Shown here: positions 2,290 through 64,000 of the stretch, piece after piece | How positions within the stretch are numbered: the first letter of the stretch is position 1 | Layout of the letters: every line of letters begins with the position of its first letter | From: Mytilus edulis | Lineage: Eukaryota | DNA: 64,000 nucleotides | Assembly: GCF_963676685.1 (NCBI RefSeq) | Contig: NC_092351.1 | Location: forward strand, 88,288,001-88,352,000 | Reading direction: 5' to 3' | Translations under genes and position numbers: made by a program | The notes under the pieces: model-generated | What the model was told of the DNA's origin: nothing | What the model saw: the letters and a program-made list of their open reading frames with translations, nothing else | Databases searched by the model: none

Positions 2290-3780
2290 GAACCACCATC
2301 GTATAATAGAAAAGCACCATCGTATAATAAAAAAGCACCTTATAATTAAAAAGCACCTTATAATAAAAAAGCACCTTATAATAAAAAAGCACCTTATAAT
2401 AGAAAATCACCATCTTATAATAGAAAAGCACCTTCGTATAATAGAAAACCACCATATTATAATAGAAAACCACCATCTTATAATAGAAAACCACCATCTT
2501 ATAATAGAAAACCAACTTCGTATAATAGAAAACCACCATCATAATATAATAGAAAAGCACCATCTTATAATAGAAAAGCACCTTCGTATAATAGAAAACC
2601 ACCATCTTATAATAGAAAACCACCATCTTATAATAGACAAGAGTGCACACGCTGAAATGTCTCGCCTTCTTTACTAATTATTGATATTATGTTGATAGTC
2701 CTAAGTATAAAGCTTATTAAAAACTCACATAAACTTAGAATTAACCAAGATAACTAAACAAAGACCAATGAACCATGAAAATGAGGTCAAGGTCAGATGA
2801 ACCATGCCAGGCAGACATGTACAGCTAACAATGATTCTATACAACAAATATAGTTGACCTATTACTTATAGTTTAAGAAAAATAGACCAAAACACAAAAA
2901 CTTAACACTGATCAATGAACCGTGAAAATGAGGTCGAGGTCAAATAAAACCTGCGGGACTGACATATAGATCATAAAATATTTCCATACACCAAATATAG
3001 TTGACCTATGGCATATAGTATTAGATAAAAAGACCAAAACTCAAAAACTTAACTTTGACCACTCAACCATGAAAATGAGGTCAAGGTCAGATGATATCTG
3101 CCCGCTAGACATGTACATCTTACAATCATTCCATACAACAAATATAGTAGATCTATTGCATAAAGTATGAGAAAAACAGACCAAAACACAAAAACTCAAC
3201 TATAACCACTGAACCATGAAAATGAGGTCAAGGTCAGATGACACCTGCCAGTTGGACATGTACACCTTACAGTCCTTCCATACACCGAATATACTAGACC
3301 TATTGCTTATAGTATCTGGGATATGGACTTGACCACCAAAACTTAACCTTGTTCACTGATCCATGAAATGAGGTCGAGGTCAAGTGAAAACTGTCTGACG
3401 GGCATGAGGACCTTGCAAGGTACGCACATACCAAATATAATTATCCTATTACTAATAATAAAAGAGAATTCAACATTACAAAAAATCTGAACTTTTTTTT
3501 CAAGTGGTCACTGAACCATGAAAATGAGGTCAAGGACATTTGACATGTGACTGACGGAAACTTCGTAACATGAGGCATCTATATACAAAGTATGAAGCAT
3601 CCAGGTCTTCCACCCTCTAAAATATAAAGCTTTTAAAAAGTTAGCTAACGCCGCCGCCGTAGCCGCCGCCGCCGCCGCCGGATCACTATCCCTATGTCGA
3701 GCTTTCTGCAACAAAAGTTGCAGGCTCGACAAAAACCACCATCTTATCATAGAAAACCACCATCTTATAATAAAAAAGCA
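2290..3780. repeat. Tandem array of 18-21-bp units (ATAATAGAAAACCACCATCTT and variants), interrupted by an insertion at 2638-3732
   Basis: Units read directly at 2290-2637 and resume at 3733-3780. Confidence 0.9.
2638..3732. mobile_element. Helentron-associated (HINE/DINE-like) non-autonomous element with internal core repeats
   Basis: Inserted in the A-run of one array unit. Core motif ACCATGAAAATGAGGTCAAGGTCA recurs about every 150 bp, (GCC)n microsatellite at 3650-3680, terminal hairpin TCGAGC..TGCAAC-AAAA-GTTGCA-GGCTCGAC. Decayed relative at 22679-23450. Confidence 0.7.
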
Positions 3781-4860
3781 ATAAAAAAAGACACATAAGA
3801 CAGCTATGGCGTTCCATATGAAAACATAGAAAAAGATATTATTAAGTTTAGTCAACAAGGTATAGTGCCTAACAAGATTTTGTGAGGTAGACGAAATTGA
3901 CTTTAAAACGATCGTATTGACTTTTGATGTCCAGAAATAGGCAGATCGAACATATTTTGACTTTATTTACTGACTTCTTAAGTTTGGGATTATTTGTAAT
4001 TAACACTTTCCAATGAGACTGAAAAATGCTTTTTTTTGTTATGATAAATAATTATTTTACCTGCCGTAGTCGTGCGTAAAATATATTTCGGCATTTCTCT
4101 TAAGAAATGACTTGTTTAATGGAACAAAACGTCTTATTTGTAAACTTTCTCTTTTATCTCCACAATAGGCTTTTAAAAAATAATCTTTCAACTGTGTATT
4201 CAGAAAATTTTGTGAAAATAGAAGAAGTGGCAATTCTTACCTTTCATACCTTAACTTTCATTGATAAAACATAATATTGACTCGTCCAGTGTCCAGTTTG
4301 AAGGTAATTTTAGTTACCGTACACATTCATGCACGTTCTAATTAATCAATAGTCATGTATGAAAGGCATAAACAAGTTTGAAGGTAAACTAATAACAACT
4401 TAATCCAATCAAATTGCCTACGATTCAATAACAATGACCAGTCCACATCATAAAAATGTATAGGGGTAAACTGGGTAGGGAGAAAATGTCAGATATTTTA
4501 AGTTCATTATTTTGCAACAACGAATAAAAATTTATTAACCAATAGATTTGCTATAATTTCATAAGCATGTCATTCTGTATTGGTATAGTTTTTGGATCTT
4601 TTATTTGCGTATTTAAGGCTGTAAAAAGCTTGGCCTTCAAAAGTCAACATAATCATTGACTTTATACAGAAAATTCGCCTTTTTAAAACATTGTATGTAT
4701 CACGAATAATACGCGACAACAAAGTAAAATCATTTCTTAAAACACTGCAAAAAAAAATCATTCTGATTGATACAGTGGTATTGTCATAAATTGCGCTGGA
4801 GTGAACAGTGGTACAGCAAACGTCGAATTCCCTCACACAATGTTATCACACACTTTTATA

Positions 4861-7109
4861 GTATTCTATTGTGTGGTGACTTAAATGCAAGGACAGGGTC
4901 AGAGCCAGATTTTATAGTTAATGATGTTAATGATACACATGAACCAATGTATGATAATTATAGTTGTGATGTTATTCAAGAAAAAAGATGTAGTTATGAT
5001 ATGAAAGTAGATTCAAGAGGTAAACAACTTCTGGACTTGTGTATTGCGTCCAAATTACGTATTTTAAATGGGAGAATGTGGGGCGATTCTTATGGTAAAT
5101 ACACTTGTATGAAGGCAGTGGGTAGTAGTGTGGTTGACTATGTTATCGTGTCAGAAGACTTGATTGCAGACACTTTATTTTTTCATGTTGCTGATTTTTT
5201 ATCAACTCTGTCAGACTGTCACTGTAAACTAACATTTGACCTGTTAGCTAGTTACTCACCTAAAACTAAGGAGCAAGACATTACTATTTTATTTCCAGGA
5301 AAATATATATGGTCAGAAACCTCTACACAAAAACTTCAAGATACTTTATGCCAGCCAAATATTAGAAACAGCATTAAAAAATATTTGGACTCAAAATTTA
5401 ATCTTTCAGAGGACTACAAATGTGTATTGAAGAAGCGGCTAATGAATGTTTTAATATAATAGATAACGCTGCCAGCAAATGTTTAATATTTCGTAAAACA
5501 AATTTAAAAGGTGTACGTAAACATAAAACAAAAAATGGTTTGACCTAGACCTAGTACAAACACGTAAAAGTCTTATTTCTAAAGGTAAGCTATTATCAAA
5601 ATTCCCTTGGGACCCAGTTATAAAAGAGTCTTACTATAAATGTTATAGAGAGTATAATAAGCTACGTAAATATAAAGAAAGGAAATTTAAACAAAACATT
5701 CTTGACAGTCTGGATAATTTAAGGGATAATAATCCAAAGAGTTATTGGAATCTCATTAAAGAATTAAAAGAAGACACTTCGGATGGTCCAGAAAATTCTA
5801 TTCAAAATAATATCTGGTTTTCATATTTTCAATCTTTAAATGTTAACTCTGACAAATTTAAAGACAGATTAGAGGAAATAAGTAAGAAAGTAAAAAATTT
5901 AGAAAAAAATCCAACGTTTTGTGAACTAGATTACAAAATAACCCTAAAAGAAATTTTGGATGCTATAAATAAACTAAAGAATAATAAAGCTGCAGGATTG
6001 GATGGTATTCCAAATGAGATATTAAAATCAGGGGGAAGTATATTTGCACCTGTTTTGCAGAAACTTTTTAATTTAGTATTCTGCTCTGGAACATACCCTC
6101 GCAAATGGTCATTATCTTATTTATGTCCAATTTTTAAAGCAGGGAGTCCTAGTAAACCTGAAAATTACAGAGGCATAGCAATAAATTCATGCATTGGAAA
6201 ATTATTTAACAGTATTCTTAATAAAAGACTTGACATTCATCTTGATAAAAATATTATAATTCATCCATGTCAGATTGGTTTTTCAAAAAATAGTAGAATA
6301 ACTGATCATATGTTTGTTTTAAAAACCATATTAGACAAATATACTAACAAAAAAGGGGGGGAACTTATGCTTGCTTTGTGGACTTTAAAAAGGCTTTCGA
6401 CAGGGTCATACACTGTGGTATTAAATATAAATTATTGGAAAACAACATATCTGGAAAATTTTATACTATTTTAAAAGATATGTACAGCAAGAATGAAATG
6501 TCTGTGAAAGTGGGCAATGTATTAACACCATCTTTCAGCTCGCTAGTTGGGGTAAGACAAGGGGATGTTCTAAGTCCAAACTTATTTAAGCTTTTCATTA
6601 ACGATCTGCCTCCAAAATTTGAGCCAAGTCCAGATGCTGTTGATATCAATGGGCGTAGTATTGATTGTCTTATGTACGCTGATGACATTATTGTATTATC
6701 AAACACTAAAAAAGGTCTTCAAAACCGACTTGATATATTGCATACTTATTGTATTGACTGGTGTCTAGATGTAAATTTGTCCAAAACAAAAGTTTTAATT
6801 TTTAACAAGCCTGGAAAATTTTTGAAGGAATCATTTTATTTAGATAAAGAGGCTTTAGAATGTGTTAATAAATGTAAATATCTAGGGATAGTCTTTACCT
6901 CTAGTGGTCTTTTTCAACAGGGGAAAGAAGAGCTATTCAAAAAATCCTTAAAGGCAAAATTCAAATTAAAAAAAATCCATGTCAGCTTGTAATCCAAGTA
7001 TTGATACTGCAATTCATTTATATGATCACACAATAAAACCAATTTTATTATATTGTAGTGAAATTTGGGGTTCATTTAAAATTAACTCTGCTGCTTGCAA
7101 GAAAAATAG
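4861..7109 (+). mobile_element. Non-LTR retrotransposon (LINE, RTEX-like) ORF2, 5' segment: APE endonuclease + reverse transcriptase, frameshifted, 5'-truncated
   Basis: APE motifs CGDLNAR, LRILNG, SVVDYVIVS, SDCHC (ORF 4767-5459). RT motifs KAAGLDGI, PENYRGIA, QIGF, DFKKAFD, GVRQGDVLSP, YADD, KYLG (5956-6992). Interrupted at 7109. Confidence 0.9.
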
Positions 7110-7790
7110 TACGGAAGCCGTAAGGGGACACACAAAACATTAGAAAATATTTTTTTTAATTCGAGATCACGATAAAACATTACCGTTTTACCGAGATCTC
7201 GATAAAAAATATATCGTTATCTCGATAAAACGAAATTGTTATATCGAGATCTCGATAAAAAAATATATCGTTATCTCGATAAAACGAAACTGTTATATCG
7301 AGATCTCGGATTATTAAATCGTTATCTCGGTTTAATATATCGAGATCTCGATAAAAAAGTATATCGTTATCTCGAGAAAACGAAACTGTTATATCGAGAT
7401 CTCGGATTATTATATCGTTATCTCGAGAAACCGAAACTTTAATATATCGTTATCTCGAGAAAACGAAAGTTTAATATATCGTTATCTCGAGAAAACGAAA
7501 CTGTTATATCGAGATCTCGGATTATTAAATCGTTATCTCGGTTTAATATATCGAGATCTCGATAAAAAATATATCGCAATCTCGAGAAAACGAAACTGTT
7601 TTATCGAGATCTCGGATTATTATATCGTTATCTCGAGAAAACGAAACTGTTATATCGAGATCTCGGATTGTTATATCGTTATCTCGGATTATTTAATTGC
7701 TTCTTATCACGTGTCAACTTATTACACAATGGTGACAGTCAACACGGCGGAAAGAGTAAGTATGATTTGTGTGTTTTAAAGCTTGTTTTA
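7110..7790 (+). repeat. Left terminal inverted repeat with CpG-rich subrepeats (TATCGAGATCTCG, TATCGTTATCTCG, AAAACGAAAC)
   Basis: First ~350 bp is nearly the exact reverse complement of 34380-34730. Looser homology continues to ~7790. Confidence 0.92.
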
Positions 7791-10850: not shown

Positions 10851-13141
10851 TTTTACTCTTTTTCATTTAGGTTTATTATTACAAATGCACCGTATTTATG
10901 GACACACCTTTGATAACTATTAACAAGTTTGACTGCTCAAGAGATTAGAAAAATTGAAAATGGGGCATACATTCTACGTGGCATTATTTTTCTTCTGGGG
11001 GTCAACATTTTATCCAAGACAAGTCGACCTAACTACAGAAACAATAAAAGTTCTCCGTATGACTTTGGTTTGGTAAAAGGCAACATCGGTCCGGTATGAT
11101 GTCATCCAAATTGCTACAAGATTTGATCTGTTCACGCATTGGTATAGGTATAGGGGGAGGGTTGAGATCTCCAAAAACATGTTTAACCCCGGCGCAATTT
11201 TACGCCTGTCCCAAATCAGGAGCCTCTGGCCTTTCTTAGTTTTGTGTGATTTTTTATTATTATTTCTTGAGTATATTTCGAAGCTTAGTATGACGTCCAT
11301 TATCATTTCAAACTAGTACATTTTTGTTTATGGGCCAGCTGAAGAACGCCTCCGGGTTTGGGAGTTTCTTGCTGCATTGATGACCCATTGGTGATCTTCG
11401 GCCGTTGCCTGCTTTTTGAACGGGTTGGTGTCTCTTTGACAAATCCCTCATGTCCATTCCCAATTTTTAATTCAATCTGTATATAGTAGATCTTGTGTCC
11501 GCTTTGAGCAAAACCTCTGCTGTACTGATATATGCCCATGCCAAGGAAGTTGTCTTTGTATGGATATGTTGACCGATAAGAATGGTGAGATTACAAGTTA
11601 AAATGAAGCTATAATATTCCGATATCGCAAGATTTCGACACCTAAATGGTCCAACATCCCATTGGTCCGACGTTTCGATCATTTAGGTTATACTCTAACG
11701 GAATTTTAACATAAGAAAGCCAAATAAAAGGTTCAATATTAGGATAACCGTGTCCTCCGTTTGAAACGGTGAAACAATATATAAAAAATTAATACTTAGT
11801 GCCAAAGAAGCCGAACGTCATCACTAGCGTAATTCAAAATAAGTACAAACTACTTTGTCAAGTGTTGTTTGATTAGTTAGATATCTCAAGATACACGGCG
11901 GCCGACTAAAGTAAAATCAAACTTAGTTTGATGTACAATGAGTGATCATATTTTCCTTGTGATGTTTTATATTAAAATTGTCACAATTTTGTTGATATAA
12001 ATATACTAGTAGCACTTTACTCATTTTAGTAATGTTAGTTAGACTACTCTTATCATATCTGATTAAGTGATGTAAATGAAATTGCGATATGATCCAGACT
12101 CAACATATTGCACTACAATAATAAAATAATTCTGCCCTATGGTTGTCTGATCTTGAAGCGGTTGACAGGCTTTCAAATTAACAGGAGACCATACACTTCC
12201 TCAATTTTAATGTACAGCTCATCATGGGACTTTTCTAAACAATTCAAAATACGTCATATGTTATATTTCCCCCTTGCTTCAAATATTTTGTTTCGGATTA
12301 CTTTATATCAAATTTGCAGATATGTGTTTGTAAATACGTGCAATCAAATGATATGGAGGTATTATAAGATTTAGATAATGCAAGGGCGACTACATATACA
12401 TTTGTGTGACTTAATGGTTGATTTTCAAATATTCCGAGAGAAAACGTTACGTAACATGCGTTACCGTTAAAATCAACCAAAATTAATAAGATTTATTCCT
12501 ATGAAGAATAAATCCGGTTATCGGAGGAAAGTGGGCTTACGTTTTGGGAGTTGTCCCGCTTTGAACACGTGGTGGAACTTGTTATGTATTATGAGTCACG
12601 TTAATTATTTTAACCTTGATAACTGTGACGTCATCATTCTTTCTTTACCACGTACGATACAGCAGAGGGAAGACGCAAAAAATTGGGTTCTGTATGAATT
12701 AACTAATGTTTGTTTTATGATGACTCCAGAACTTAGGAATGAAGTTGTTCAGATTGTCAATGGCAATGCCCTTATTCACTCTCCAGCTACTGTTAGTGTT
12801 ACATCTCCTGACTCAGTCAATGAAAGGCAACAATCGAATACAGGTATAACACAAAGTTCTAATATTTGCCAATAACTAGTGCAAATGGTAATCTATGTTT
12901 AAATGTTTCACAAATCTCGGAACAAAATAATTAATGGTGAATATGTAGATTTAGGTATATATTGCTTTAATACAAATTCAGGCACAGAACAGTAGATACA
13001 AATGGACAGCTGATTATCCAAACTAAACTAAGTAAAAAGATTACTGATATTAACACATGGATAGATGCTTTCCTTATTTACATAAGTATTTATGTTGGTG
13101 TACATTTAGAAGATGCACCTAACTTAACCGAATACATACAT

Positions 13142-13400
13142 GTTAAAATATTTTGTGTATCCGTGTTTCTAGTGCAAAATTTACAAAATCTCTCATTAGA
13201 GGGTATTGTTGGTCTTGCATACCTACCAGTTTCTATTGATAATGAGTGGGCACTTATTCTTAATTTAGTGATAAATAAAAAGTTAACCACAGTTTCCATC
13301 TTTTATCTTAAGATAGTTCAAATTTAATTTAATTTTGTAGAAATCTTCTAGTTTCTGTTTGAAATTACTATTACAATGCTTGTTAAAGGGTATTCCAATA
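13142..13400 (-). mobile_element. LINE ORF2 3' fragment
   Basis: KLRISAHSLSIETGRY..ERFCKFC, the same motif class as 35460-35620. Confidence 0.7.
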
Positions 13401-13537
13401 TATTTCATTAATTCAGATAATTTATTAGACCACAAATTTTCTCTGTACTAAGTTGATATTTTAATAGGATTGATTGATTGTTGGTTGCTTAATGTCCAGT
13501 GGCAAATATTTCAGGCATATCTATCAGGACAAATATT

Positions 13538-15890
13538 TACACAGTGTCTGTAAATTGTGTCATTTTAGGATAATTTAGTTTGTATCAAGCAGATACATTG
13601 TTATGACACAGTGTCTGTAAATTATGTCTTTTTAGAATAACTTAGTTTGTATCAAGGAGATATTCTGGTAGAACACAGTGTCTGTAAATTGTGTCTTTTT
13701 AGGATAATCTAGTTTGTATCAATTAGATCCATTGATAGGACAAAGTGTATGTAAATTGTGTCTTTTAAGGATAATATAGTTGTATCAAGTAGATACATTG
13801 ATATGACACAGTGTCTGTAAATTGTGTCTTTTAAGGATACTATAGTTTGTATCAAGTAGATATGTTGATAGGACAGTGTCTGTAAATTGTGTTTTTTAAG
13901 GATAATATAGTTTGTATCAAGTAGATATGTTGATAGGACATAGTGTGTTTAATTGTGTCTTTTAAGGATAATATAGTTTGTATCAAGTAGATATGTTGAT
14001 AGGACACAGTGTCTGTAAATTGTGTCTTTTAAGGATAATATAGTTTGTATCAAGTAGATATGTTGATAGGACAGTGTCTGTAAATTGTGTCTTTTAAGGA
14101 TAATATAGTTTGTATCAAGTAGATATGTTGATAGGACACAGTGTCTGTAAATTGTGTCTTTTTAGGATAATTTAGTTTGTATCAAGTAGATACATTGATA
14201 TTACACAGTGTCTGTAAATTGTGTCTTTTTAGGATAATTTAGTTTGTATCAAGTAGATACATTGATAGGACAGTGTCTGTAAATTGTGTCTTTTAAAAAT
14301 AATTTAGTTTGTAGATATGTTGATAGGACAGTGTCGGTAAATTGTGTTTTTTAAGGATAATTTAGTTTGTATCAAGTAGATACATTGATAAGATACAGTT
14401 TCTGTAAATTGTGTCTTTTTAGGATAATTTAGTTTGTATCAAGTAGATATGTTGATAGGACACAGTGTCTGTAAATTGTGTCTTTTAAGGATAATATAGT
14501 TTGTATCAAGTAGATATGTTGATAGGACACAGTGTCTGTAAATTGTGTCTTTTAAGGATATTTTAGTTTGTATCAAGTAGATACATTGATATGACACAGT
14601 GTCTGTAAATTGTGTCTTTTAAGGATAATTTAGTTTGTATCAAGTAGATATGTTGATAGGATACAGTTTGTGTAAATTGTGTCTTTTAAGGATAATTGAG
14701 TTTGTTTGTATCAAGTAGATATATTGATATGACACAGTGTCTGTAAATTGTGTCTTTTAAGGATATTTTAGTTTGTATCAAGTAGATACATTGATATGAC
14801 ACAGTGTCTGTAAATTGTGTCTTTTAAGGATATTTAGTTTGTATCAAGTAGATACATAGATAGGACACAGTGTCTGTAAATTGTGTCGTTTAAGGATAAT
14901 TTAGTTTGTATCAAGTAGATACATTGATATGACACAGTGTCTGTAAATTGTGTCTGATAAGGATAATTTAGTTTGTATCAAGTAGATACATTGATAGGAC
15001 AAAGTGTCTGTAAATTGTGTCTTTTCAGGATAATTTAGTTTGTATCTAGTAGATACATTGATATGACACAGTGTCTGTAAATTGTGTCGTTTAAGGATAA
15101 TTTAGTTTGTATCAAGTAGATACATTGATATGACACAGTGTCTGTAAATTATGTCTTTTAAGGATAATTTAGTTTGTATCAAGTAGATACATTGTTAGGA
15201 AACAGTGTCTGTAAATTGTGTCTTATGAGGATAATTTAGTTTGTATCAAGTAGATACATTGATAGGACAAAGTGTCTGTAAATTGTGTCTTTTAAGGATA
15301 ATTTAGTTTGTATCAAGTAGATACATTGATAAGACACAGTGTCTGTAAATTGTGTCGTTTAAGGATGATTTAGTTTGTATCAAGTAGATACATTGATATG
15401 ACACAGTGTCTGTAAATTATGTCTTTTAAGGATAATTTAGTTTGTATCAAGTAGATACATTGAAAAGTTTGTATCAAGTAGGATACAAACTGTATCCTAT
15501 CAATGTCTGTAAATTGTGTATTTTAAGGATAATTTAGTTTGTATCAAGTAGATACATTGATAGGACACAGTGTCTGTAAATTGTGTATTTTTAGGATAAT
15601 TTAGTTTGTATCAAGTAGATACATTGATAGGACACAGTGTCTGTAAATTGTGTATTTTAAGGATAATTTAGTTTGTATCAAGTAGATACATTGATAGGAC
15701 ACAGTGTCTGTAAATTGTGTATTTTAAGGATAATTTAGTTTGTATCAAGTAGATACATTGATAGGACACGGTGTCTGTAAATTGTGTATTTTAAGGATAA
15801 TTTAGTTTGTATCAAGTAGATACATTGATAGGACACAGTGTCTGTAAATTGTTCCTTTTTAGTATTTTTGATTTGTATCAAGTAGATACA
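13538..15890. repeat. 67-bp satellite array, about 35 copies
   Basis: Consensus ACACAGTGTCTGTAAATTGTGTCTTTTAAGGATAATTTAGTTTGTATCAAGTAGATACATTGATAGG. Period measured from 15541 to 15608. Confidence 0.95.
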
Positions 15891-18851
15891 TCAGAAACAT
15901 AGTGTACATGTCTAGTGGCTTTCGAAGCGTTCCGTAAATTGTACAATTATGATATCATTTGGCCACCACTTTTAGAATCACTTAAGGCATTTTTATTGCA
16001 TGCAACTATATTTATTGCTTATATGTCACTTGAAACAAATTAAATTGGTTTATAGGACAGCTAACTGTTATCCGTAAAGAAAGATCACGTTGCAAAATTT
16101 TGCTATTATTGTTATCCCATTCTCAAAAACGGATCAATTTTGTCATGGTACATGTATAGAAATAACAGAAACTAAACTAGAATATTGTCTAATTTATTTG
16201 TAAAAAATATGAAATGCACAAAGGTTAAAGTCCCCTAATTCTCTGTCTTTGGTGACAAGTACCAGTGTTCATGTGTTCTAAGTTTTAAAAGTTTGAATAC
16301 ATGTAGGAATAATGGATTCAGTTTCAATTTGAATCGGAGATATGGTAAAAACCAATAAGCATTAATAAAGCAGCCACAAGAATGTACACCTTTGCCGCTT
16401 AGCTATATATACAATTGGGAGGTTGTTACATAAAATAGCCTGAATATATAATAAGCCCGATATATTCACATCTGACGGCGTTACTTTATCTCATGTGGGC
16501 AATTGTTTCTTATTCCATTACAGGGTAATTTAAATATAAATATATGTGTGTGGTCATTTAAAAGTACGGTCACGGCGGTGTGTTGTGTCGCTACCGCATT
16601 TGTGGCGGTGGTCGAACTCAGTGTCCAATAACTCTTGGCATAGCCACTGAATTCGACCATGTGGCGAAAATAGCGACACAACATCTACAAATATATTATG
16701 CTTCTTATAATGGAATTATGTATCCGCTGAGCTTCTGTTTCCCAGGGCCAGCATCCGATATATTTTGGAAGCAATAATGTTAATAAGGATATTATATTGA
16801 TATATAAGGAAATGACATTATAAGGAATAACAATAAGGTGGAAATAAGGAATAAGAATAATGTGGAAATAAGGAATAAGGAATGGACAATAATGTGGAAA
16901 TAAGGAATAAGGAATGGACAATAATGTGGAAATAAGGAATAAGGAATGGACTATAAGGTTTAATTATATATACTAGGGACTTGCCAATTATGTTTCTCGG
17001 CAGTCCCATTCTTTGTCAAGCCGTGGCCGTACAATTTTGTACTTTTGCCAAATAAAATATTTCTTACTTTATATATTTGTATGTCATTTGGCCCCACGTT
17101 GTCTCAGATAATAAGATTTATTCCTATGAAGAATAAATCCGGTTATCGGAGGAAAGTGGGCTTACGTTTTGGGAGTTGTCCCGCTTTGAACACGTGGTGG
17201 AACTTGTTATGTATTATGAGTCACGTTAATTATTTTAACCTTGATAACTGTGACGTCATCATTCTTTCTTTACCACGTACGATACAGCAGAGGGAAGACG
17301 CAAAAAATTGGGTTCTGTATGAATTAACTAATGTTTGTTTCAAAAGTTACCCACCCACCCACCACTTAGATAAAAGACATACTCCTAAAATGTAGTTAAT
17401 ATACATGTGTTAAATGTTATATTATGTTATATCATGTTGTTCGTTTTTCTGCTGTTTTTGTTCTATTTTTCAGGTTGAAATGACTGGTAGCTTATTCCGA
17501 TTGTAATCCCAATCCTTCGTCACGGCTTCAGACAAAGACTCCGACCATTGTAATCCAAATCCTTCGTCACGGCTTCAGACAAAGACTCCGACCATTTAAT
17601 GGCGAAAATAGCGACACAACATCTACAAATATATTATGCTTCTTATAATGGAATTATGTATCCGCTGAGCTTCTGTTTCCCAGGGCCAGCATCCGATATA
17701 TTTTGGAAGCAATAATGTTAATAAGGATATTATATTGATATATAAGGAAATGACATTATAAGGAATAAGAATAAGGTGGAAATAAGGAATAAGAATAATG
17801 TGGAAATAAGGAATAAGGAATGGACAATAATGTGGAAATAAGGAATAAGGAATGGACAATAATGTGGAAATAAGGAATAAGGAATGGACTATAAGGTTTA
17901 ATTATATATACTAGGGACTTGCCAATTATGTTTCTCGGCAGTCCCATTCTTTGTCAAGCCGTGGCCGTACAATTTTGTACTTTTGCCAAATAAAATATTT
18001 CTTACTTTATATATTTGTATGTCATTTGGCCCCACGTTGTCTCAGATAATTAATACTATGATAGAAATATATTTTTCCAACAGTAATACAGCATTCCTGT
18101 AAAATTGTTTCGTTTTTGCATTTGTTTTGACTAGATTTTTCTACTGGAAGTATCCGTGAATTGAAATTGCACCCATGACCTTTGACCTCGATTTAAAAAA
18201 AATGCACCATAATTTCTTTTGACGACCGGGATATTTAGAAAGTACACATTCTTAGCTTTCCAGTGATATACAATTTAGCCGTGTGTTAGGTAGGTGCATT
18301 AAAAATGTAAATTTGGCTCTCATATCACTCGCCTAATATTAGTTATAAATAAAGTTGAATTCTTTGATTCGCTGTTTTAAGTCATGCCGGCTAACAAATC
18401 GAAAACTACCTATACGCCTTATTTTAAGTCCAGATTTTTTGTATTCGTATTGACATCTTAGATAGTCATACTGATTAAAATACTACAATAGGGAACAATA
18501 TGACAATGATTGATTTAGAAGTGTCAACCCTTTGATTATGACCCGTGTATATAGCAAAATCCTAAATACACCGTTTTGTGGTGCGCCTGTAAGATGCGCA
18601 ACGTACAGATAAGGTAATAGGTAACAGGTGAATATATTATTTATATCGATATCGGATTCTACCCGGAACTTGTTAACGGGTCTGGAGTGGTGTAAATTCT
18701 AATCAACACCATTGTTCTAATATTAGCTATATATAAAGTTGAATTCTTTGGTTTGTCATTTTTACCCCATGACGGCTGACAAACTCGACCTCGTTATTTT
18801 AGTATTATAGATATATACAAAAATATTTGATCTTGACAGTTTCTTTTGTAG

Positions 18852-21769
18852 GTAAACGTGCTTCGTTTGGTGAAGAGATATTTTGAAATGGAATTCTTTT
18901 ATAGAGATATTGTCAAGATTTTACAAATGAATCATGCCATTAGTATATCACTTCGTCAGGTTAAGAGGTATTTAAAAGAAATGAATCTTGCTCGTAGAAA
19001 AGACTACTCAAATATTCGATCTGTATTTAACTTTGTTCATACGCAAGTCACTTCATACGGACCAGCGCATGGATATCGTTGGATGTATCAGAAGTGTAAG
19101 CGGCACGGGTTTAAAATAAAAAGAGACCACATTAGCCTCATGCTTAACACAATTGATCCAGAGGGGGTATATCTTAGAGCCCGGCGAAGACTAAAAAGAA
19201 GAGAATATTTTTCAAGGGGGCCAAATTTTTGTTGGCATTTGGACTCCTACGATAAATTGAAAAGATATGGCTTATGCATCAATGCTTGCATCGATGGGTT
19301 TTCCAGGAAAATAATATGGCTCAAAGTTGGTAGATCTAGTAGTAATCCAAAAGTCATAGCTAGGTATTTTATAGACGCAATAAAAGAGCATAGAGGTCAT
19401 CCATATAGCATGAGAGGTGATATGGGCACAGAAAATGGGCTGGTTGCAGTAATGCAGACGTTGTTTGCTGGAGATGAAGTGACAATACCTTTCATTTACG
19501 GAAAAAGCACTATGAACACTAGAATTGAGTCCTGGTGGGGCATTTTGCGAAAGAAGTGCTGTCAAGTATGGATATCAGCGATGAAAGGCCTTCAGGAACG
19601 AGGTCAATTTTCAGGAGACAAACTTGACATTAACCTAATTCAATTTTGTTGCATGCAGTTACTTCAGGTACCTTTCTTTTCTATTTGTAGAAATATTTTA
19701 CCTTCCAATATGAGCTCATGGCAATAGGCTTTCTTTGAAAGATCCTTTTTGATACCAATTTTTGTTGTACGTTTTACTTGTTAAAAACTCTTATTTTGAT
19801 ATAAGGAATGTATTATGTTTTTTAATCAATTCCTCACAAACGGTATTTTAAGGGAAAATATAGATTATTTGATACGTTGCTTGGAGCATAACTACGTAAT
19901 TGGTTTACACTTCAAAATTGTTTTATTTTAGTTATCAGTTAGGTCATTACACGATCCACTGTATCTACTAAATCATTGGAATGTCACTCCGTATTCATCG
20001 TAGTAATCTTCATTTGACTAATTTATTTTAGGATGAAGGATTTGATATCGAGGTGCTTGGGTTTTTTTTTCTATTATCAGTCGTTTAGGTTGTCTGAGCT
20101 GCCTGTCAGCAACAGCGAGTGTTCTCTTGTGAATCTTTTTATTTATGTTTTGTCTTCTTTTTCTGTAAACATGGTAAATTGTCTATGATTTTTCTCGATG
20201 AATTGGATCCTTTTTAATTCTTATTTAGATTGTACGTTTTACTTGTTCAAAATTGTTATTCTCATCTTGGTATATCAGGGACAGGCTGCATTAAATACGT
20301 TTAACCCCGCCTCATATGTTTAAGTGTGCGCCTGTCTTATGCCAGGAACCTTTGTCAGAGTTTGTATTTGAATTAATCTTTTAATTTCTTTCTGGGAGAA
20401 GGTTTCTCATTTGGTTTGCCTTGGTGTTAAGTTGGCATATCCTCATGATGCCCTATGGGACCATACATAGACGGTCGTACATGGTGTACATGCTGCATGG
20501 CGGCCTCCGTATGTCACGCTTTAATTGTTCGATGATTTGGTATCTGATTGGCATTTATTCCATAAATTGTACCTGACTTCTAATGATTGTAACGTATAGG
20601 AGTTTTTGTAATAAGTAATATCCTATTTTAACGTATAAACTCGTAAACGACATACATATCAAATGTGATCTGGAACAGAAAAAAAAATAACATCATAGAA
20701 AAAAGTTACCCACATTAGGATTTCTCGGTAACGCGAAATTGTAGAAGAGGGACGAAAGATACCAAAGGGACAGTCAAACTCATAAATCTAAAACAAACTG
20801 ACAACGCCATGGCTAAAAATGAAAAAGACAAACAAACAACAGCACACACGACACAACATAGAAAACTAAAGAATAAACAACACGAACCCCACCAAAAAAC
20901 TAGGGGTGATCTCAGGTGCTCCGGAAGGGTAAGCAGATCCTACTCCACATGCGGCACCCGTCGTGTTGCTTATGTGATAACAAATCCGTCTAAGGGGGAC
21001 GATCCGAGAATTTTGAAAAGGAAGGGTGCTAGAACAAATGAGGGGTGGTGGTGTGCCAGGCTACTATTTGCCGATTTTGGCCTATATTTCACATGAATTT
21101 AACAAAATTTTCCAAAAAAAATAGGGTGCACATACCCGGAACACCCACTTCCCCCACCTTTTAATCGTGTGCTGTTGAATCTGGACATATTTTGAGAATG
21201 ACACATATACTTTCAGTCGACGTTTCGTCTTAATGTATGTTTGCCAATCAGAACCTAGAGAAGACAATTACGCCAACAAAATTGGATTTTTACAGGGACA
21301 TTTGGAACAAACTGATCAGCCCTACTTCTAACGGTAGTGTACAATTAATGGGGAAGATTTTAATAAGATTGCATTTGAAAATCTTGTGATTTGATTGGCC
21401 TTTTGTCCTGATTAAAAATGAAAAATGGCTTTGTCTTTTTTACAGAGCGAACTAGATGACACTGCGCAGGTATGGAACACTCATTATATTAGGAGAAGTA
21501 GAGAGTATGTTTTTCATGGACGGCCTGTCAACATGTATCTTTATCCCGACTTGTTCAATGCTGAGGAGCATATTCGACAGGTCGATGACGACGTGCTACA
21601 CTTTTGTCGATCAGAATGCGCTGAAGAGGACGAGTACCCATGCGAAGAAGAGATTTTTGAGTTGGGATGCATTTACATGGAGGAAAATCTACTGAAACCA
21701 CCCGAAAACGTCGACGAGTCAGTAGCGCTATACCTAAGTTTGCGTCGCTGGTTTATTCAACAGCTATGA
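18852..21769 (+). CDS. IS3-like DDE integrase-core transposase; exons 18852-19667 and 21446-21769 (probable first mini-exon 7729-7755)
   Basis: HTH-like N-terminus (ISLRQVKRYLKEMNLARR, GYRWM) and catalytic motifs WHLDSYDKL, CIDGFSR, RGDMGTEN, NTRIESWW. Phase-0 GT-AG intron 19668-21445 joins LLQ|SELDDTAQVWNTHYIR. No internal stops. Confidence 0.88.
20744..20988 (+). repeat. Interspersed repeat family B (AAGAGGGACGAAAGATACC...), likely Penelope-like-element derived
   Basis: Reverse copies at 45475-45790, 50600-50942 and 56990-57085; forward copy at 53660-53905. The 50.3-50.9 kb copy is attached to a PLE-like RT fragment. Confidence 0.7.
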
Positions 21770-22678: not shown

Positions 22679-23450
22679 AAAGAGTGGACACACTGAAATG
22701 TCTCGCCTGTTCCAGTGTTCATAATATAACTTATGTTGTAAGTATAAAAAACAAGTTTAAACCACAAGCATTATAAATAAATTAACATTTAAATGATCAA
22801 TGTACATGAGACGAAGGTGAGATAAACCCTTTCAGACAGAAATGTAGTTCATGCACTCATTCCATACAACAAATCTAGTTTACCTATTGCTAAAAGTATC
22901 TCCGAATAAACCTCTTAAAAAATAACCTTGACCATGAAATATAGGTCAAGATCAACTTACACCTACTTAACAGACATACACACCTTACAATTATTCCCTA
23001 CACCAAATATAGTTATACTATCCCTTTAGTATCTGAAAGAAGGCCAAATCAGATAAATGTAACATTGGCCAATGAACCATGACCTTGAGGTCAAGGTCAA
23101 ATGATTATTGTCAGAATGGAATCCATACACGAAATATAATTGACTTCTGAGAAATAGACCATATCACAAATTTTTAATTTGGCCAGTCAACCATGAAAAA
23201 GAGGTCAAGGTCAGATTATTATTGACAGACAGACATGTACACCTTACAAACATTCCATACACCAAATATAATTGACTGGATACTTATAGTATCTGCAAAA
23301 TAGACCAAAACACCAAAAAAAATATACTTTGACCACTGAATCATGAAAATGAGGTCACGGTCAGATGTCACCTGCCAGTTGGACATGAACAACTTACAAT
23401 CATTGCACAACCAATTATAGAAGACCTATTGCTTTATAGATATGGACTTA
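22679..23450. mobile_element. Decayed copy of the HINE-like element at 2638-3732
   Basis: Shares AAGAGTG.ACAC.CTGAAATGTCTCGCC and the CCATGAAAA.GAGGTCAAGGTCA cores. Confidence 0.7.
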
Positions 23451-26400
23451 TAAAAAAGAAGATGTGGTATGATTGCCAATGAGACAACTATCCACAAAAG
23501 ACCAAAATGACACAGACATTAACAACTATAGGTCATCGTACGGCCTTCAACAATGAGCAAAGCCCATACCGCATAGTCAGCTATAAGAGGCCCCGATAAG
23601 ACACGGAAGCTTTCAAATATTCCCACGCAACTAAATTAGCAAATAAATCTGTCGTTCGTCATTACTGTGAAGTTTCAAAACATTTAGCCTAACAGTTTCA
23701 GAGGAGAAGATTTTAGAAAATCGGCCAATGAGAATCTAAGATTTGCTATAGCGACCCTGTTTTTCATTGGACCAGAACAAAAATAAGTAAGTTCGTAAAG
23801 AACCTTCAACTGAACATTCCTATAAAGTTTCGTTTAAATCCGTCCAGTGGTTTCAAAGAAGAAGATGAAAATGTGAAAAGATTACGACGGACGACGGATG
23901 CAACTTGATGGTCAGGTGAGCTTAAAATGTAGCATAAGGACATGAAAGATAGACTGTGCCAAGTTCAAAGTAAATCCCTTCAGTGGTTTTTGAGAGAAAA
24001 TTTTCGGAATGTTAACAGCGGGCGACATACGATGGAAAGCAAAAGCACAAATAGTCTTCGGCTAGGTATACTAAGCTAAAAAATAAATATCATGAAATCT
24101 CCTTCAATATCTTTATTTGGTCAACAAAACTGACAAAATAATATAAAGCTGAAAAATGGGGGCCCGTATGCATAACACATCTTAAGGTTATATTTGTTCG
24201 TAAAGGACAGTTTTTTCTTCAAAAGCAATGGACGTCTACTGGTACTCTAAATGGAATTCTTAACTTCAGTATTTTTATGAATACAGGCTCAGGCCATTCT
24301 CAGTAATGCATCATACTCAGTACATTTTATATATTGAACTGAAAAGCAAACTTAATCATGTTTACTTAATAATATTTACATTAAAAAGTTACATTCAGTG
24401 CATATGATATTAAAGTTTTAATAAAGAAAAAAAGCTAAAAACTTTATGATCTTATTTAAATTGGTCTAAATTTGAAAAAAATGAAAACAAAATTTCGACA
24501 GGAATACCTCTGACTCAGAAAAAAAGTGTAATTCACACGGAATAAAAGTGTCAACGAGTTAAAATAATGGTGGAAAGGTTATTTATTGGTTACATGCCTA
24601 AAATTACCCCAGTTGCTGGAAACTACTCTGATACTTTCAGAAAGTACTCCTACAGCTTATTAAAAAAAAGGCAAAAAAGGGACATATCTTCCAAGACGAG
24701 ACATTGGAGCAATGTAATTAATATGCTGACCAATATTTTGATAGCTTTACTGCTTTACAAATACTGAGTCTACCCTCATGATCTATTTCAAGCCATTTGA
24801 ACATTGTTAGTAAACCCTTTAGATTATGTTTACCTAGTTAAGATCAGGACCCTTTTGATTTTTACAGGGTCAAAGATTTTAATATGTTTATGACATATTT
24901 TAATGCCATTTGAACCATGCATGTTTATTTTGTTGAGACAAGTATACACTCTACAGTTATAATCTTCAGTTAAACATATCTAGATTCAGTCAGGCCAGTC
25001 ACTCAAAGGATGCTGCAGTGATCTAGCATTGATGTAAGCATGGTTAAACAATGTGCATTTAGTCCCTGACAAATTTACATTTTGTTGATTCTTCTTTGAA
25101 TCATTACATGAAATCATACAATACAATCTTAAAACAATGTGCATCTAGTCCCTGACAAATTTACATTTTGTCGATTCTTCTTTGAATCATTACATGAAAT
25201 CATACAATACCAACTTATTGAATGTAAGTGATAAAAGCAAAAGAAAGGAATGTCCAAACTTCAATCAAAGAAGTGACTAAACATAATCCATCTCCCACAT
25301 GTTTGTTTTGAATATGTTCATAAAGTCTTCTCTGAGGTCAGCAACAGACTCATAACAAGATGGCAGTTGTGGCATATTCCCACAAGTCTGAGCTGTGGGT
25401 CTCCTCTCAAAACCTGAAAGCATACTAAATGCTACATTTAATTGGTAACACATGAGGTTTGATCCAGTACAAAAACGCATAAAGTTTTGAAGTCCTTTCT
25501 CGTCTAAACTTTTTATAAACTTTTAACGATAACCAGCCACAATCTGTTCTTTGAGTTCAAGAACATCAGGAAACTTTAGAAGTTTCAACACTTTTGCAAC
25601 TGTTGGGTTCTTGTCTTCATAAACTCTTGAACTCTTAGCTGGACTGTTTGTGGAGTTAATGATGAAGTCTTTGAAGGTGATTCATTTGATGGATCAGAAG
25701 ATAAGTTAGCGACTTGTTTATTTACTTGTAGTAATTTGTGATCAGGTAAACTATCATCGGATGGAGATTCCATTTCAGAACAGCCCACAACAGTTGTTGG
25801 TAACTTCTTGCTGTATATGTAAAATCGTAGAAGTTTTGATCCTGTCAAAGTATATAGGTCTCCAATTGTGCAATCATTGTCCATTCTGCCTCCCATAAAA
25901 TTTCTGACTTCAAATTGAAAATCTGTTACGTTTCCTCTTTTCGATTTGCCATTCAGGAAAAATACCTTCTTCCCATGTTGCAGGATATCATCTTGCATCC
26001 AGGTCTTCGGTGCATTGATGTATCTTACGCCTCCACCATTTAGTGTCCTGACTTGACGATATTCACTACTTCTGTAATCGTAATCAAACCACCCAATTTC
26101 AATCTTCCTCTCTTGCTTTTTGGCATTGTCATTCCCTTTCAGCTTTCAATAAAGAATGAAGAACGAATGTACAAAAACAAAGAAATTAAACAACTAAACA
26201 CTCTTTATTCAATGTTTACTTTTTAGCTCATTTTTTTTCAATTGCTAAATATGTGATAAATAGATTATTATTCACTGTAAATTATTCCTGTACATGCACA
26301 CAGTTGCTTACATTACTCAGTTGCTTACCCATGCTACACTACACAAGTATTGGTACTCCAGATCTATATAGTGGAGGAAAGAATAAAGAAGAAGAAGAAT

Positions 26401-34730: not shown

Positions 34731-34736
34731 AAATAG

Positions 34737-34756
34737 TGATTATCTATTTGAATTAA

Positions 34757-34792
<36 letters not shown>

Positions 34793-35800
34793 ATTTTATA
34801 TTGTAGTGAAATTTGGGGTTCATTTAAAATTAACTCTGCTGCTTGCAAGAAAAAAAGTGATTATCTATTTGAATTAATATAAAAAAAAAAAAATATTTGA
34901 ATTTTATATTGTAGTGAAATTTGGGGTTCATTTAAAATTAACTCTGCTGCTTGCAAGAAAAAAAGTGATTATCTATTTGAATTAATCTACATAAATGATT
35001 ATTTGGAAAAATCACATTTCAGATATTTAAAGTATATTCTTGGTGTAAATAAGAAAGCCTCAAATTTAGCAGTGTTATCAGAGGTTGCAAGATTTCCTCT
35101 TTATTTTTCTGTCATTATATCTATGGTAAAATATGTACACAGGCTTAACAAGTTGGACAAAGGGTTACTTTATGATGCTTATGTTTGTAATAAAATTTTA
35201 GATGCAGAAAACATTAATTGTTGGTATTCATCTATGAAATATGTACTTCAATCACTTGATATACAAAATTTAGATACAAAGCTCAATAAATTAATTAAAT
35301 TTGTAAAAGGTAAACTTTGTAATAGTTTTAAAACATTTTGGTTGGTCAAAAGATCTGAAACCTTATCACAAGGTAATAGTAAATTAGAAAATTATTTCAA
35401 CCTCAAGACTGACTTTGTAAAGGAGGCTTATTTATCAATTAAAGATTTTAGTATAAGAAGAGCTATATGTAAAATGAGAATAAGTGCTCATGATCTTAGA
35501 ATTGAGAAAGATAGATATAGTAAAAAATACATTGAGAGAACTTAACGTCTATGTCATCACTGCTTATCACATGGATCAAATTCTATTGAAGATGAGACCC
35601 ATTTTACAGTAAATTGTCCATTATTTGATGAACAGAGGAAATTATTATTTGATAAAGTTATCACTTTTTGTACTAATTTTAAAGAACTACCTAATGATAA
35701 GAAATATTTCTGGCTGTTCACAAATGAGCATTTACCAACTCTCATTTGCCTAGGAAATTACATTATTAAAGGTTTAGAAATAAGATCCAGATGTAAACAA
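34737..35800 (+). mobile_element. LINE ORF2 3' segment (continuation of 4861-7109)
   Basis: LEKSHFRYLKYILGV..AVLSEVARFPL..KMRISAHDLRIEKDRY..stop..LCHHC..EDETHFTVNCP zinc-knuckle-like end. Confidence 0.88.
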
Positions 35801-35846
35801 AATCTTGAACTGAATTTTAATGTGCGTATTGTTATGCGTTTACTTT

Positions 35847-36883
35847 CAGGGGTTAAAAAATCCACTAGCCCGACGCCCGGGACTAGATCATTTGCGCCTC
35901 GGGCAATCAAAACTTTAACCCAATATGCCCGACGGACTAGTAACAAAACATTATTGTCGTTTCCAAAACAGATAGTGGAAAATCCCTTCATCCCTATTCT
36001 ATCTTAGTCAATCAGATTCAATTACGTCATCCGGGATTCGAAGCATTTGAACTGGTTTGTACAGGTCTAGGGTTGCATTCAATATCGTAGCGGCTACTTA
36101 GGGCTATGCAGATTTATGACTATTGAACGAGTAGCTAGCCTAGCTGCTACATAGATATTGATAGCAGCTAGGCTAGCTACTCGTTCAGTAGACAAAAATC
36201 TATGTAGCACTGCGTAACCCTACGATATTGAACGCAACTCTGTTGTACAGTTACATGTTTTAAAAATAGAACAAATAACTCAGGGTGGACAGGTATCATC
36301 TATTGATTGCAATATCTCACACTTTTAATATCGATTTCTCAGTACAGGGGGTATTGTACATTGCATCTGTCGAGATTTTCAATTAATCGGTAGATGAAGG
36401 GGGTACTATTGAGGCTGAAAATTCATCTTGAAAAAATGTAAAATACGATCGGGAAAAGCGGAAAAGAACATATCTAGTGACATGGACAGAAAGATTTCCC
36501 TGGGCAAGGTCGGTTGTGGCGCCAGGATGAAATTTCTGAGACCATGTTCTGCGAATATTGCCAGTGTTTTCCCGAGCATCCCAATAAAAGGTCTCCCTTG
36601 TATGTGTGGACAACTAATATAATAATTAAACCACTTGTTTCACACGATAAAACCAATAAAAATGTTTTCTCTGACAGAAAATTAACTAGTTTAAAACGGT
36701 GTATAATGTCCCCTTCAAAACATTACACCCACCATGTATTATGCAGCAAACTCTGATTTGTAAGGCATACATGGGCTAGGAGGTTAGTTTTGATGGGCTA
36801 GCAGTTCTTCGAACAGGGCTAGTAAAATCCTGCTGCCAATAAGTCCTGGGCTAGTTATCTGGAACAACATTTTTTAACCCCTG
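35847..36883. mobile_element. Non-autonomous hAT-like element with 5-bp TSD
   Basis: TIR CAGGGGTTAAAAAAT / ATTTTTTAACCCCTG, TSD ACTTT, repeated GGGCTAG subterminal motifs. Interrupts a family A repeat. Confidence 0.75.
36067..36242. mobile_element. Palindromic MITE-like element
   Basis: GGTTGCATTCAATATCGTAG / CTACGATATTGAACGCAACT ends and a central TGAACGAGTAGCTAGCCTAGCTGCTA inverted pair. Confidence 0.65.
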
Positions 36884-60016: not shown

Positions 60017-60058
60017 CCTGCTTTTCAGACCGATACCTGTAGGAAAGAATGAAATAAA

Positions 60059-63878: not shown

Positions 63879-64000
63879 CTGAAACGAAAATCAAATGTAA
63901 GAATACATTGACGAAGTAAATTGTAAATTTAAGTTACCAAAATACACACAACAATCATTACATATCTATAACGAAACAAAAAAATAGACTTGATTCTAAA

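Follow-up and report, generated by a model that had tools for sequence, protein, structure and literature searches.

A degenerate Ngaro element with near-identical split repeats and an internal satellite array in Mytilus edulis

A 5,567-bp element in the 64-kb window (the whole stretch of Mytilus edulis DNA analysed here) is probably a non-autonomous Mytilus Ngaro derivative that was recently copied to this place by the proteins of an intact relative, carrying a LINE piece and a 2.35-kb satellite along via its RNA. The repeats at its ends are practically intact and its genes are in ruins; since its reverse transcriptase/RNase H (RT/RH) and the catalytic motifs of its tyrosine recombinase (YR) have been lost, the element cannot move itself. 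Split-repeat YR retrotransposons are common and their replication has been inferred almost wholly from DIRS-1. The association of rotted genes and identical repeats is evidence from nature for a re-templating of both repeat pairs in each cycle and for proteins that are supplied in trans.

Repeats, ends and junction

The preliminary description of this DNA, made from its letters alone, proposed an A1-B1-A2-B2 layout with nearly identical repeats of 232 and 451 bp and one difference in B. A self-BLAST of the whole window confirms it (Table 1). A1 and A2 are identical at 232/232 bases, and the 451 bases of B1 and B2 are separated by a single substitution (16831 C, 17769 G) and no indel; the subrepeats within B also agree between both copies. 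When both pairs are pooled, 1 of 679 sites differs, with an upper 95% bound of 0.8%. The repeats are direct and there is no long complementarity between A and B, so the organization is not that of DIRS1-like elements.

The motif TAAT occupies both outer ends (12484-12487 and 18047-18050) and the B1/A2 overlap (17109-17112), the three sites where it had been noticed before. The probability of a chance TAAT is 0.012 at one fixed site and a few per cent if placement is left free. The earlier statement that there is no conventional TSD is better worded as a four-base crossover motif at both ends, a situation that is compatible with DIRS-1-type integration at a motif common to junction and target. 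The TAAT of the B/A junction is presumed to be the template that restores the ends of the element.

The 259-bp spacer between A2 and B2, which contains a 47-bp tandem duplication, may be the portion of A that is missing from A1. It resembles the DNA that precedes B1 or follows A1 no more than shuffled sequences do. Older homology beyond the repeat boundaries also stays within the shuffle range, except for seven matching bases immediately upstream of B1 and B2. The possibility that the duplications are an assembly artefact, made of collapsed or mis-polished repeats, can hardly be credited. A nested and satellite-rich region is certainly hard to assemble, but the correctly ordered Ngaro remnants are framed by precisely the layout published for Ngaro, and the assembly separates 29 distinct sequences among 34 array segments and retains one B1/B2 difference. 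The element is itself nested in a 27.6-kb inverted-repeat transposon (7110-34730) that had been overlooked; passive carriage within this surrounding DNA transposon cannot account for the identity of A1 with A2 and of B1 with B2.

Table 1. Features of the element (12484..18050), in window coordinates
Feature	Position	Strand	Remarks
A1, left split direct repeat	12484..12715	+	Starts with TAAT; 3' end joined straight to mid-gag (deletion 1)
gag remnant	12720..13116	+	Corresponds to P0006 (relative, 343 aa) residues 66-195, approximately
Micro-inverted gag piece	13111..13161	-	P0006 residues 195-211; pivot is a short inverted homology
Antisense LINE ORF2 C-terminus fragment	13163..13444	-	P0157, E 5e-36, 74/97 residues
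Linker	13445..13538	.	Weak resemblance to the satellite only
67-bp satellite array	13539..15891	+	About 35 monomers, strongly G-skewed
YR N-terminal remnant	15882..16071	+	P0162 residues 7-60; E 1.5e-8; 29/53 residues
YR middle remnant	16077..16326	+	P0019 residues 88-167; 53/72 residues identical
SGNH/GDSL hydrolase ORF, C-terminal third	16338..16530	+	25/33 residues vs P0005; 31/61 vs P0017
Long rod-like hairpin	16575..16690	+	Spans the 5' boundary of B1
B1, internal copy of right repeat	16662..17112	+	450/451 identical to B2; 24/32-bp subrepeats
A2	17109..17340	+	First four bases (17109-17112) are the B/A junction TAAT
A2-B2 spacer	17341..17599	+	Pyrimidine tract to AG near 17473; 47-bp duplication 17500-17593
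B2, right split direct repeat	17600..18050	+	Ends with TAAT

Coding remnants and family assignment

The interior is made up of pieces of gag, YR and SGNH that follow one another as in Ngaro, interrupted by four large deletions and bearing at least eight frameshifts and four stops across 1,028 nt of remnants. Pfam finds nothing credible among the 14 ORF scraps of the element and Rfam has no match (E up to 0.5) over 12400-18200; the identity of the scraps came via their relatives, a comparison which confirms as real the gag, YR and SGNH-like scraps that had been described as the only surviving coding sequence. The gag remnant shares 111/133 aligned residues with P0014 and 97/130 with P0006 (named Mytilus gag matches are 73-82% identical) and contains three frameshifts (near 12865, 12911 and 12994) together with several in-frame indels. 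The inverted gag piece is recovered as a minus-strand tblastn match (82-88%) by seven of the nine gag relatives. The LINE fragment, whose relative P0160 carries RVT_1, is itself frameshifted and has lost about 25 codons internally; its extension into the linker is not significant (88/300 shuffles), and 1.2-1.6% of 2,330 background tile-strands score as high as the linker-satellite tiles. Neither this fragment nor the gag micro-inversion had been noticed in the preliminary description.

The YR is represented by an N-terminal remnant with one stop, one frameshift and a 21-nt insertion, and by a middle remnant with two to four frameshifts and one stop, whose relative P0019 matches Pfam PF00589 (E 3.5e-6). 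The regions of the catalytic Arg, His-x-x-Arg and Tyr (positions 138, 255, 279 and 285 in the relative P0162) fall inside deletions 3 and 4. The SGNH remnant has two frameshifts and two stops; its relative P0017 matches Pfam Lipase_GDSL_2 with an E of 7.9e-7, the relatives overall ranging from 9e-8 to 2e-6. None of the ten RT/RH-bearing relatives matches the element with its RT/RH part, and the satellite array and the LINE piece occupy the place expected for the 3' end of gag and the entire RT/RNase H (deletion 2). The intact RT/RNase H and catalytically complete YR of an autonomous Ngaro are both absent.

In the published Ngaro layout, the ORFs lie between A1 and the B1A2B2 block (bioRxiv 10.1101/2021.08.05.455354, in the portion available; PMC8547959 section 11) and the internal repeats are downstream of the YR (PMC4157794, in part); an SGNH ORF after the YR is described there for some animal Ngaro only (bioRxiv 10.1101/2021.08.05.455354). 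The window element has the A1...B1 A2 B2 split direct repeats, of which the internal ones lie downstream of the YR, a gag-like gene first and a tyrosine recombinase late (as remnants only, the relatives carrying PF00589), and an SGNH hydrolase ORF after the YR. At the level of sequence comparison, the element can be said to descend from a Mytilus Ngaro family. Of the Ngaro/PAT elements for which the layout had earlier been called typical, Ngaro is the one indicated by the close gag, YR and SGNH relatives, and both the SGNH ORF and the lack of MT in the pol of relatives speak for Ngaro over PAT. Dam (PF05869) was found in 0 of 29 scans of relatives, among which seven RT-RH relatives end 30-40 residues past the last RH motif and the full-length pol relatives are only ~47-58% identical to P0005; the MT region is deleted in the element itself, and the same scan found Dam in the other YR element of the window. 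This second element (59027-61165) was considered as a helper and rejected: an MT domain is present, the YR shows 24-26% identity to that of the family studied here and there is no DNA in common with A or B.

The M. galloprovincialis protein P0002 and the window have in common four gag characters that are absent from the other eight sequences of the alignment shown and a fifth that is otherwise present only in two distant ones. Judging from these, P0002 is a probable sister copy of the element's lineage; the characters that this gene model shares with the window are all in-frame and may mark an active subfamily.

Age of the repeats and replication in trans

If the element had decayed in place, 10.6 indel differences would be predicted between the repeat copies, but there are none (P = 2.6e-5, or 0.005 when the test is run for one lineage). 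Only frameshifts and stops were counted, since the amino-acid distances to the relatives include subfamily distance. The cis ends are intact, the interior is ruined and the repeats are younger than the lesions, as expected of TOC1-like elements. As far as one locus can tell, the contrast between lesions and repeats strongly supports a recent mobilization in trans, which is what had been proposed for this deleted derivative. Alternatively, this could be a copy that died long ago and has stayed in place ever since, its repeats having been homogenized by gene conversion with the element itself or intact members of the family as donor. The proximity of the repeats within each pair (938 and 4,625 bp) favors conversion, and so does the lack of any further copy of A, B, the spacer or the satellite in the 64-kb window (whole-window self-BLAST). 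Nevertheless, this scenario is improbable: conversion would have to occur in two distinct tracts, both of them spanning an entire repeat up to its precise limits without running into the neighboring remnants, and the SGNH remnant is in ruins at a distance of only 130 bp upstream of B1.

The route of a mobilization in trans can be sketched by analogy with DIRS-1, in which a short motif derived from the junction plus the target flanks both ends and the RT works in trans; in the accessible part of the same source, the tests of the model concern DIRS-1 rather than elements with split repeats, and even for DIRS-1 the circle junction could not be recovered by amplification (PMC7192593). An RNA would run from A1 through the interior to B2, on the assumption that transcription passes through both the antisense LINE piece and the 2.35-kb satellite. 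The Gag and RT of a helper would package and reverse-transcribe it. The cDNA ends would then anneal to the internal B1A2 and be re-templated from it, which would reset A1 to A2 and B1 to B2 in every cycle, like paired LTRs. Finally, the helper YR would recombine the restored B/A junction into a genomic TAAT, leaving one TAAT per end. The cis requirements of such a cycle would be limited to the repeats and the junction, perhaps with the hairpin at the B1 boundary; with so few requirements, the interior would be free to rot and to gather cargo.

This hairpin is a notable candidate among the cis signals flagged here: B contributes its initial 25 bases, which pair with a unique sequence upstream, and the partner arm is absent at B2. 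It reaches z = -6.2 as RNA and -5.9 as minus-strand DNA (0/200 shuffles each) in a window picked after it had been sighted. Among 154 fixed windows, its region has the second-lowest z (-3.1), while the equivalent B2 stretch has +0.7. The fold of the B1/A2 junction is modest (z = -2.5, 3/200 shuffles, unstable centroid; -1.0 in a short window) but nonetheless the lowest of the 154 fixed windows (z = -3.3), and the A2-B2 spacer is devoid of structure (z = +1.1). The preliminary description had passed over the strong hairpin.

The satellite array and related elements

The array makes up 42% of the element. Its monomers differ on average by 7.8% (496 pairs among 32 regular monomers), tenfold the upper bound of the repeats, which makes the array the older of the two. 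It was likely carried as cargo. The last five monomers are nearly identical (1.2% apart) and a small inversion lies within the array at 15484-15511. Another possibility is that the non-autonomous element inserted recently and that the LINE-satellite block was pasted in later by break repair with template switching, replacing the 3' end of gag and the RT/RH, in which case the satellite would not be cargo. The gag inversion stops exactly where the LINE junction falls, and at least 10 nt are shared between the satellite and the YR N-terminal remnant, which resembles one complex repair event; moreover, P0002 has no inversion at the point matching 13111 and the similarity of the last five monomers suggests that the array is still changing locally. 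Yet the paste-in would have to fit in the brief period after insertion, during which the repeats diverged by 0.8% at most, and not in the much longer prior decay, and an already diverged array would have to be imported in one piece, so we regard it as unlikely.

It is similarly unlikely that the satellite arose in situ out of the YR start or the LINE fragment, a scenario that concerns only the origin of the array and is compatible with recent copying in trans. On the right, satellite similarity continues for some 10-24 nt within the YR match, and there is a weak 35-nt resemblance at the LINE edge. Against this, the scores of the YR N-terminus profile were reached by 61, 137 and 63 of 500 shuffles (three column sets) and those of the LINE profile by 165/300, although with such distant proteins these are weak tests. 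A two-subunit structure of the satellite is not significant (218/300 shuffles). Exact scans of bacterial and archaeal genomes for the B/A junction and the satellite, bearing on host contamination, gave 0 and 0 matches, a result that is uninformative for a mussel element.

TOC1 combines split repeats with an internal 76-bp tandem array. In the available portions of the sources, this Chlamydomonas reinhardtii element is a mobile non-autonomous derivative of TOC3 (PMC5613634, PMC9940879) and, like the Mytilus one, a non-autonomous tyrosine-recombinase retroelement of more than 5 kb; TOC1 still inserts anew (PMC5613634, PMC9940879, bioRxiv 10.1101/2022.08.29.505686). However, TOC1 relies on TOC3, from the MT-bearing PAT group of a green alga (PMC4157794, in part), whereas the Mytilus element comes from an SGNH-bearing animal Ngaro and retains recognizable gene wreckage and a LINE piece. 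The SGNH Ngaro DIRS-53_XT of Xenopus tropicalis has the same A1...B1A2B2 layout and gag-(RT/RH)-YR-SGNH order and repeats that are comparable in length (236 bp for A and 152 bp for B, with 100% identity in both pairs), but the Mytilus element has no intact ORF and its RT/RH is gone; as far as the accessible text goes, degenerate Xenopus copies mainly lost their repeats, while the Mytilus element kept its repeats and lost its genes (bioRxiv 10.1101/2021.08.05.455354). Internally deleted or miniature split-repeat derivatives are also known at several loci in Cafeteria burkhardae, as Ngaro type 2b and solo AB repeats (PMC8547959 section 11), and in Trypanosoma cruzi, as SIRE (PMC6681497, in part). 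Type 2b lacks only ~2 kb covering ORF1 and SIRE consists of A2 plus B2 alone, and satellite cargo is described for neither in those same texts (PMC8547959 section 11; PMC6681497, in part). Non-autonomous YR elements being known already (TOC1, SIRE, the deleted Cafeteria Ngaros), the Mytilus case is neat rather than surprising.

In bivalves, non-autonomous Helitron/Helentron elements are likewise mobile with a short satellite array on board (PMC8268682, in part), but these are rolling-circle DNA elements, unlike the Ngaro derivative. Within the part of the oyster satellitome study available, 1 of 52 satellites is labelled LTR/DIRS, similarities to elements other than Helitrons are called fragmentary and their active propagation is judged unlikely (PMC8268682). 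DIRS or Ngaro elements are unmentioned in PMC11136912 and PMC12818792. No report of a satellite-carrying non-autonomous Ngaro was found in the literature, which is weak evidence of absence, as Repbase, Dfam, subscription journals and supplements were outside the search.

A broader scenario, possible though rather doubtful, is that gene-less Ngaro parasites form a live family in mussels and spread the 67-bp satellite and the captured LINE piece by an RNA-to-circle route. In that case, bivalve satellites would have a retro-vehicle for their dispersal beside the known Helitron route, and sister copies carrying the array would add this retrotransposon route to bivalve satellite dispersal. The surviving A and B repeats, TAAT junction and B1-boundary hairpin would then map the minimal cis signals of split-repeat replication, and the array would refill the element to approximately its parental length (5.6 kb), as a packaging size rule would predict.

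Structure and affiliation of the element

Exact extension of both repeat pairs confirmed the preliminary description in its coordinates for the element (12484-18050), in the near identity of its 232-bp left (A) and 451-bp right (B) repeats, and in the presence of a common TAAT at the B1/A2 junction and at both outer ends. B1 and A2 overlap by this motif, with which the element also begins and ends, and the sole difference between B1 and B2 is a substitution at 16831/17769. No further copies of any part of the element were found elsewhere in the 64-kb window. A 9-bp perfect stem-loop, not significant alone (z -0.4), adjoins the TAAT just inside the start of A (12491-12515 and 17116-17140). The spacer contains a pyrimidine tract with a terminal AG (17440-17475) that resembles a splice acceptor and may be part of a leader missing from A1.

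Features of the element and of the 27.6-kb unit around it (YR, tyrosine recombinase; P0014 and P0019, relative proteins)
Feature	Position	Remarks
A1	12484-12715	identical to A2 (17109-17340) at 232/232 bases; exact extension
gag	12720-13116	111/133 residues identical to P0014; 3 frameshifts
Inverted gag piece	13111-13161	51 bp
LINE ORF2 fragment	13163-13444	antisense; E 5e-36; 74/97 residues
67-bp satellite array	13539-15891	2,353 of the element's 5,567 bases
YR N-terminus	15882-16071	protein relatives mapped back
YR middle	16077-16326	53/72 residues vs P0019
SGNH C-terminus	16338-16530	protein relatives mapped back
B1	16662-17112	vs B2 (17600-18050): 451 bases, one substitution; exact extension
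A2-B2 spacer		259 bp; contains 47-bp tandem duplication
rva_4 integrase ORF (27.6-kb unit)	18852-19727, resumes near 21422	E 4e-23
HECT-like gene (27.6-kb unit)	25277-26145	minus strand; weak match, E 0.0012, below cut-off

Pfam detected no credible domain in 14 scraps of the element. The longest scrap has nine relatives among 184 candidates, seven of them named Mytilus proteins (73-82% identity), which makes a Mytilus mussel the most probable host. One relative, P0005, is a gene model with the order gag-RT-YR-SGNH. Searches with P0005 and with its YR relative P0019 returned 150 and 120 proteins, respectively, among the matches listed, which were then mapped back. The gag, YR and SGNH-like scraps reported earlier were recovered in this way, in the order gag-YR-SGNH, and the relatives of the last two bear PF00589 and Lipase_GDSL_2. 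None of the 10 relatives bearing reverse transcriptase/RNase H (RT/RH) matches the element within that part. Four large deletions were delimited: from A1 to gag residue 66, the gag 3' end with the whole of pol, YR residues ~61-165, and the YR C-terminus with the SGNH N-terminus. The YR motifs (positions 138, 255, 279 and 285 of the relative P0162) all fall outside the surviving remnants. Judging from its sequence, the element is incapable of moving itself.

Split direct repeats are common to Ngaro and PAT, Ngaro elements are devoid of methyltransferase and have their internal repeats after the YR, and an SGNH ORF was added in the Ngaro of some animals (bioRxiv 10.1101/2021.08.05.455354, PMC4157794, PMC7192593, PMC3783388). 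The element has both an SGNH remnant and internal repeats downstream of the YR, which, within the Ngaro/PAT ancestry initially proposed, points to Ngaro. The Dam methyltransferase was found in 0 of 29 scans of relatives; the same domain was detected in the window's other YR element. The assignment to Ngaro is based on structure.

Age of the lesions and probable copying in trans

The age test counted only unambiguous lesions (frameshifts and stops). The remnants (1,028 nt) contain 8 frameshifts (10 against another relative, P0033) and 4 stops. Decay in place predicts ~10.6 indel differences between the repeat pairs, whereas none was observed (Poisson P 2.6e-5; P 0.005 in the single-lineage version); the pooled repeat difference is 1/679, with an upper bound of 0.8%. 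Ruined genes between repeats without indels imply that the genes decayed first and the repeats became identical later. This contrast favors the preliminary suggestion of a deleted derivative recently mobilised in trans, and the element is very probably a non-autonomous Ngaro derivative recently copied in this manner.

In the DIRS-1 model (PMC7192593), the termini are restored from an essential internal copy of the ends, a short junction motif undergoes recombination with its counterpart at the target site, leaving one motif per end, and the RT acts in trans. Since the same study tested no split-repeat element and the DIRS-1 circle junction could not be amplified, the model is transferred here by inference. 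The ends of our element would have been re-templated from the internal B1A2 copy, and the TAAT of the B/A junction would have recombined with a target TAAT, leaving one at each end. The TAAT at both ends is consistent with such junction-target recombination (chance of TAAT at a fixed site: 0.012).

When the stretch 16575-16690 is folded, unique upstream sequence pairs with the first 25 bases of B to give a long rod (RNA z -6.2, minus-strand DNA z -5.9, 0/200 shuffles each, for a window picked after inspection). A blind scan of 154 windows placed this region second (z -3.1), behind the window over the B1/A2 junction (-3.3). The corresponding stretch at B2 is without structure (z +0.7), and Rfam gave no match in 12400-18200. 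Speculatively, this predicted fold could be a start point for B re-templating or a mark distinguishing B1 from B2.

Nine gag rows matching the display pattern were compared. An insertion of two residues with altered neighbours, as well as three single substitutions, are common to the window and P0002, from M. galloprovincialis, alone; a fifth character of the window occurs in P0002 and also in two distant rows. P0002 retains the gag start and is continuous across the window's inversion point. The shared characters suggest that a single lineage has left two or more descendants, although these characters are in-frame.

The satellite array as likely cargo

Among the 32 regular monomers (496 pairs; 2 irregular ones of 34 excluded), the mean difference is 7.8% and eight pairs are identical. 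The diversity of the array is ~10 times the upper bound for the repeats, so most of it is older than the last repeat reset, and the array would have travelled as cargo. Alternatively, the satellite could have been imported after that reset as a ready-made block together with the LINE piece. This scenario is less favored, because the interval since the last cycle is much shorter than the one before it, a comparison drawn from one locus. Overall, a non-autonomous Ngaro derivative with the satellite as cargo seems likely.

Derivation of the monomer from the YR start (61, 137 and 63 of 500 shuffles) or from the LINE (165/300) was not supported; the real satellite-YR link is a short overlap at the array's right edge. 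The element may also disperse the satellite, as the preliminary description proposed; two scans of prokaryotic genomes, one for the B/A junction and one for the satellite, gave no matches. The last five monomers are 1.2% apart and begin directly after a micro-inversion (15484-15511). This inversion and the one in gag (13111-13161) are each flanked by short inverted homologies and possibly result from template switching by RT or during repair.

TOC1 contains an internal 76-bp array. Like our element it is a non-autonomous derivative, albeit of TOC3 instead of a Ngaro, and it is described as still inserting in PMC5613634, PMC9940879 and bioRxiv 10.1101/2022.08.29.505686; bioRxiv 10.1101/2022.05.23.493040 mentions it only in passing. 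Other sources report Ngaros without ORF1 and solo repeats in Cafeteria (PMC8547959), SIRE as a miniature VIPER (PMC6681497), low Ngaro copy numbers in bivalves (PMC10294476), 15 Ngaro families in Ectocarpus (PMC12477816) and Helitrons carrying bivalve satellites (PMC8268682). DIRS and Ngaro are not mentioned in PMC11136912 or PMC12818792, and the open-access papers and preprints listed by the literature searches included none on a satellite-carrying non-autonomous Ngaro.

The surrounding unit and the rest of the window

A 27,621-bp unit (7110-34730) surrounds the element. It has perfect terminal inverted repeats of 153 bp, ~80% alike over 900 bp, ends TAC...GTA and a 6-bp target duplication. 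These ends and the duplication are, we presume, reminiscent of IS3EU/IS481EU-type transposons; the unit is very large for a cut-and-paste element. It interrupts a LINE (endonuclease-RT; 4767-7110 and 34731-36007), whose ORF resumes at 34901; between the unit's right end and this point lie a run of 28 A bases and a tandem duplication of 108 bp. This LINE was rejected as the source family of the element's LINE fragment (~31% against P0157, a relative protein).

The other YR retroelement remnant (59027-61234, minus strand), of DIRS/PAT type, has an RNase H, a methyltransferase similar to Dam and a YR whose 343-aa frame is open; its RT is mostly missing and self-BLAST found no terminal repeats. 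Host genes include two HSP70-12-like large exons facing each other (37445-38503, minus; 54043-55218, plus; DNA 67% alike), and a DUF229 protein is encoded by a single long ORF (61931-63928, minus strand; E 7e-124). Finally, 147-bp tandem repeats at 2752-3393 and 22776-23439, ~70% alike, form a dispersed short-array family, a candidate for the kind carried by bivalve Helitron-like elements.
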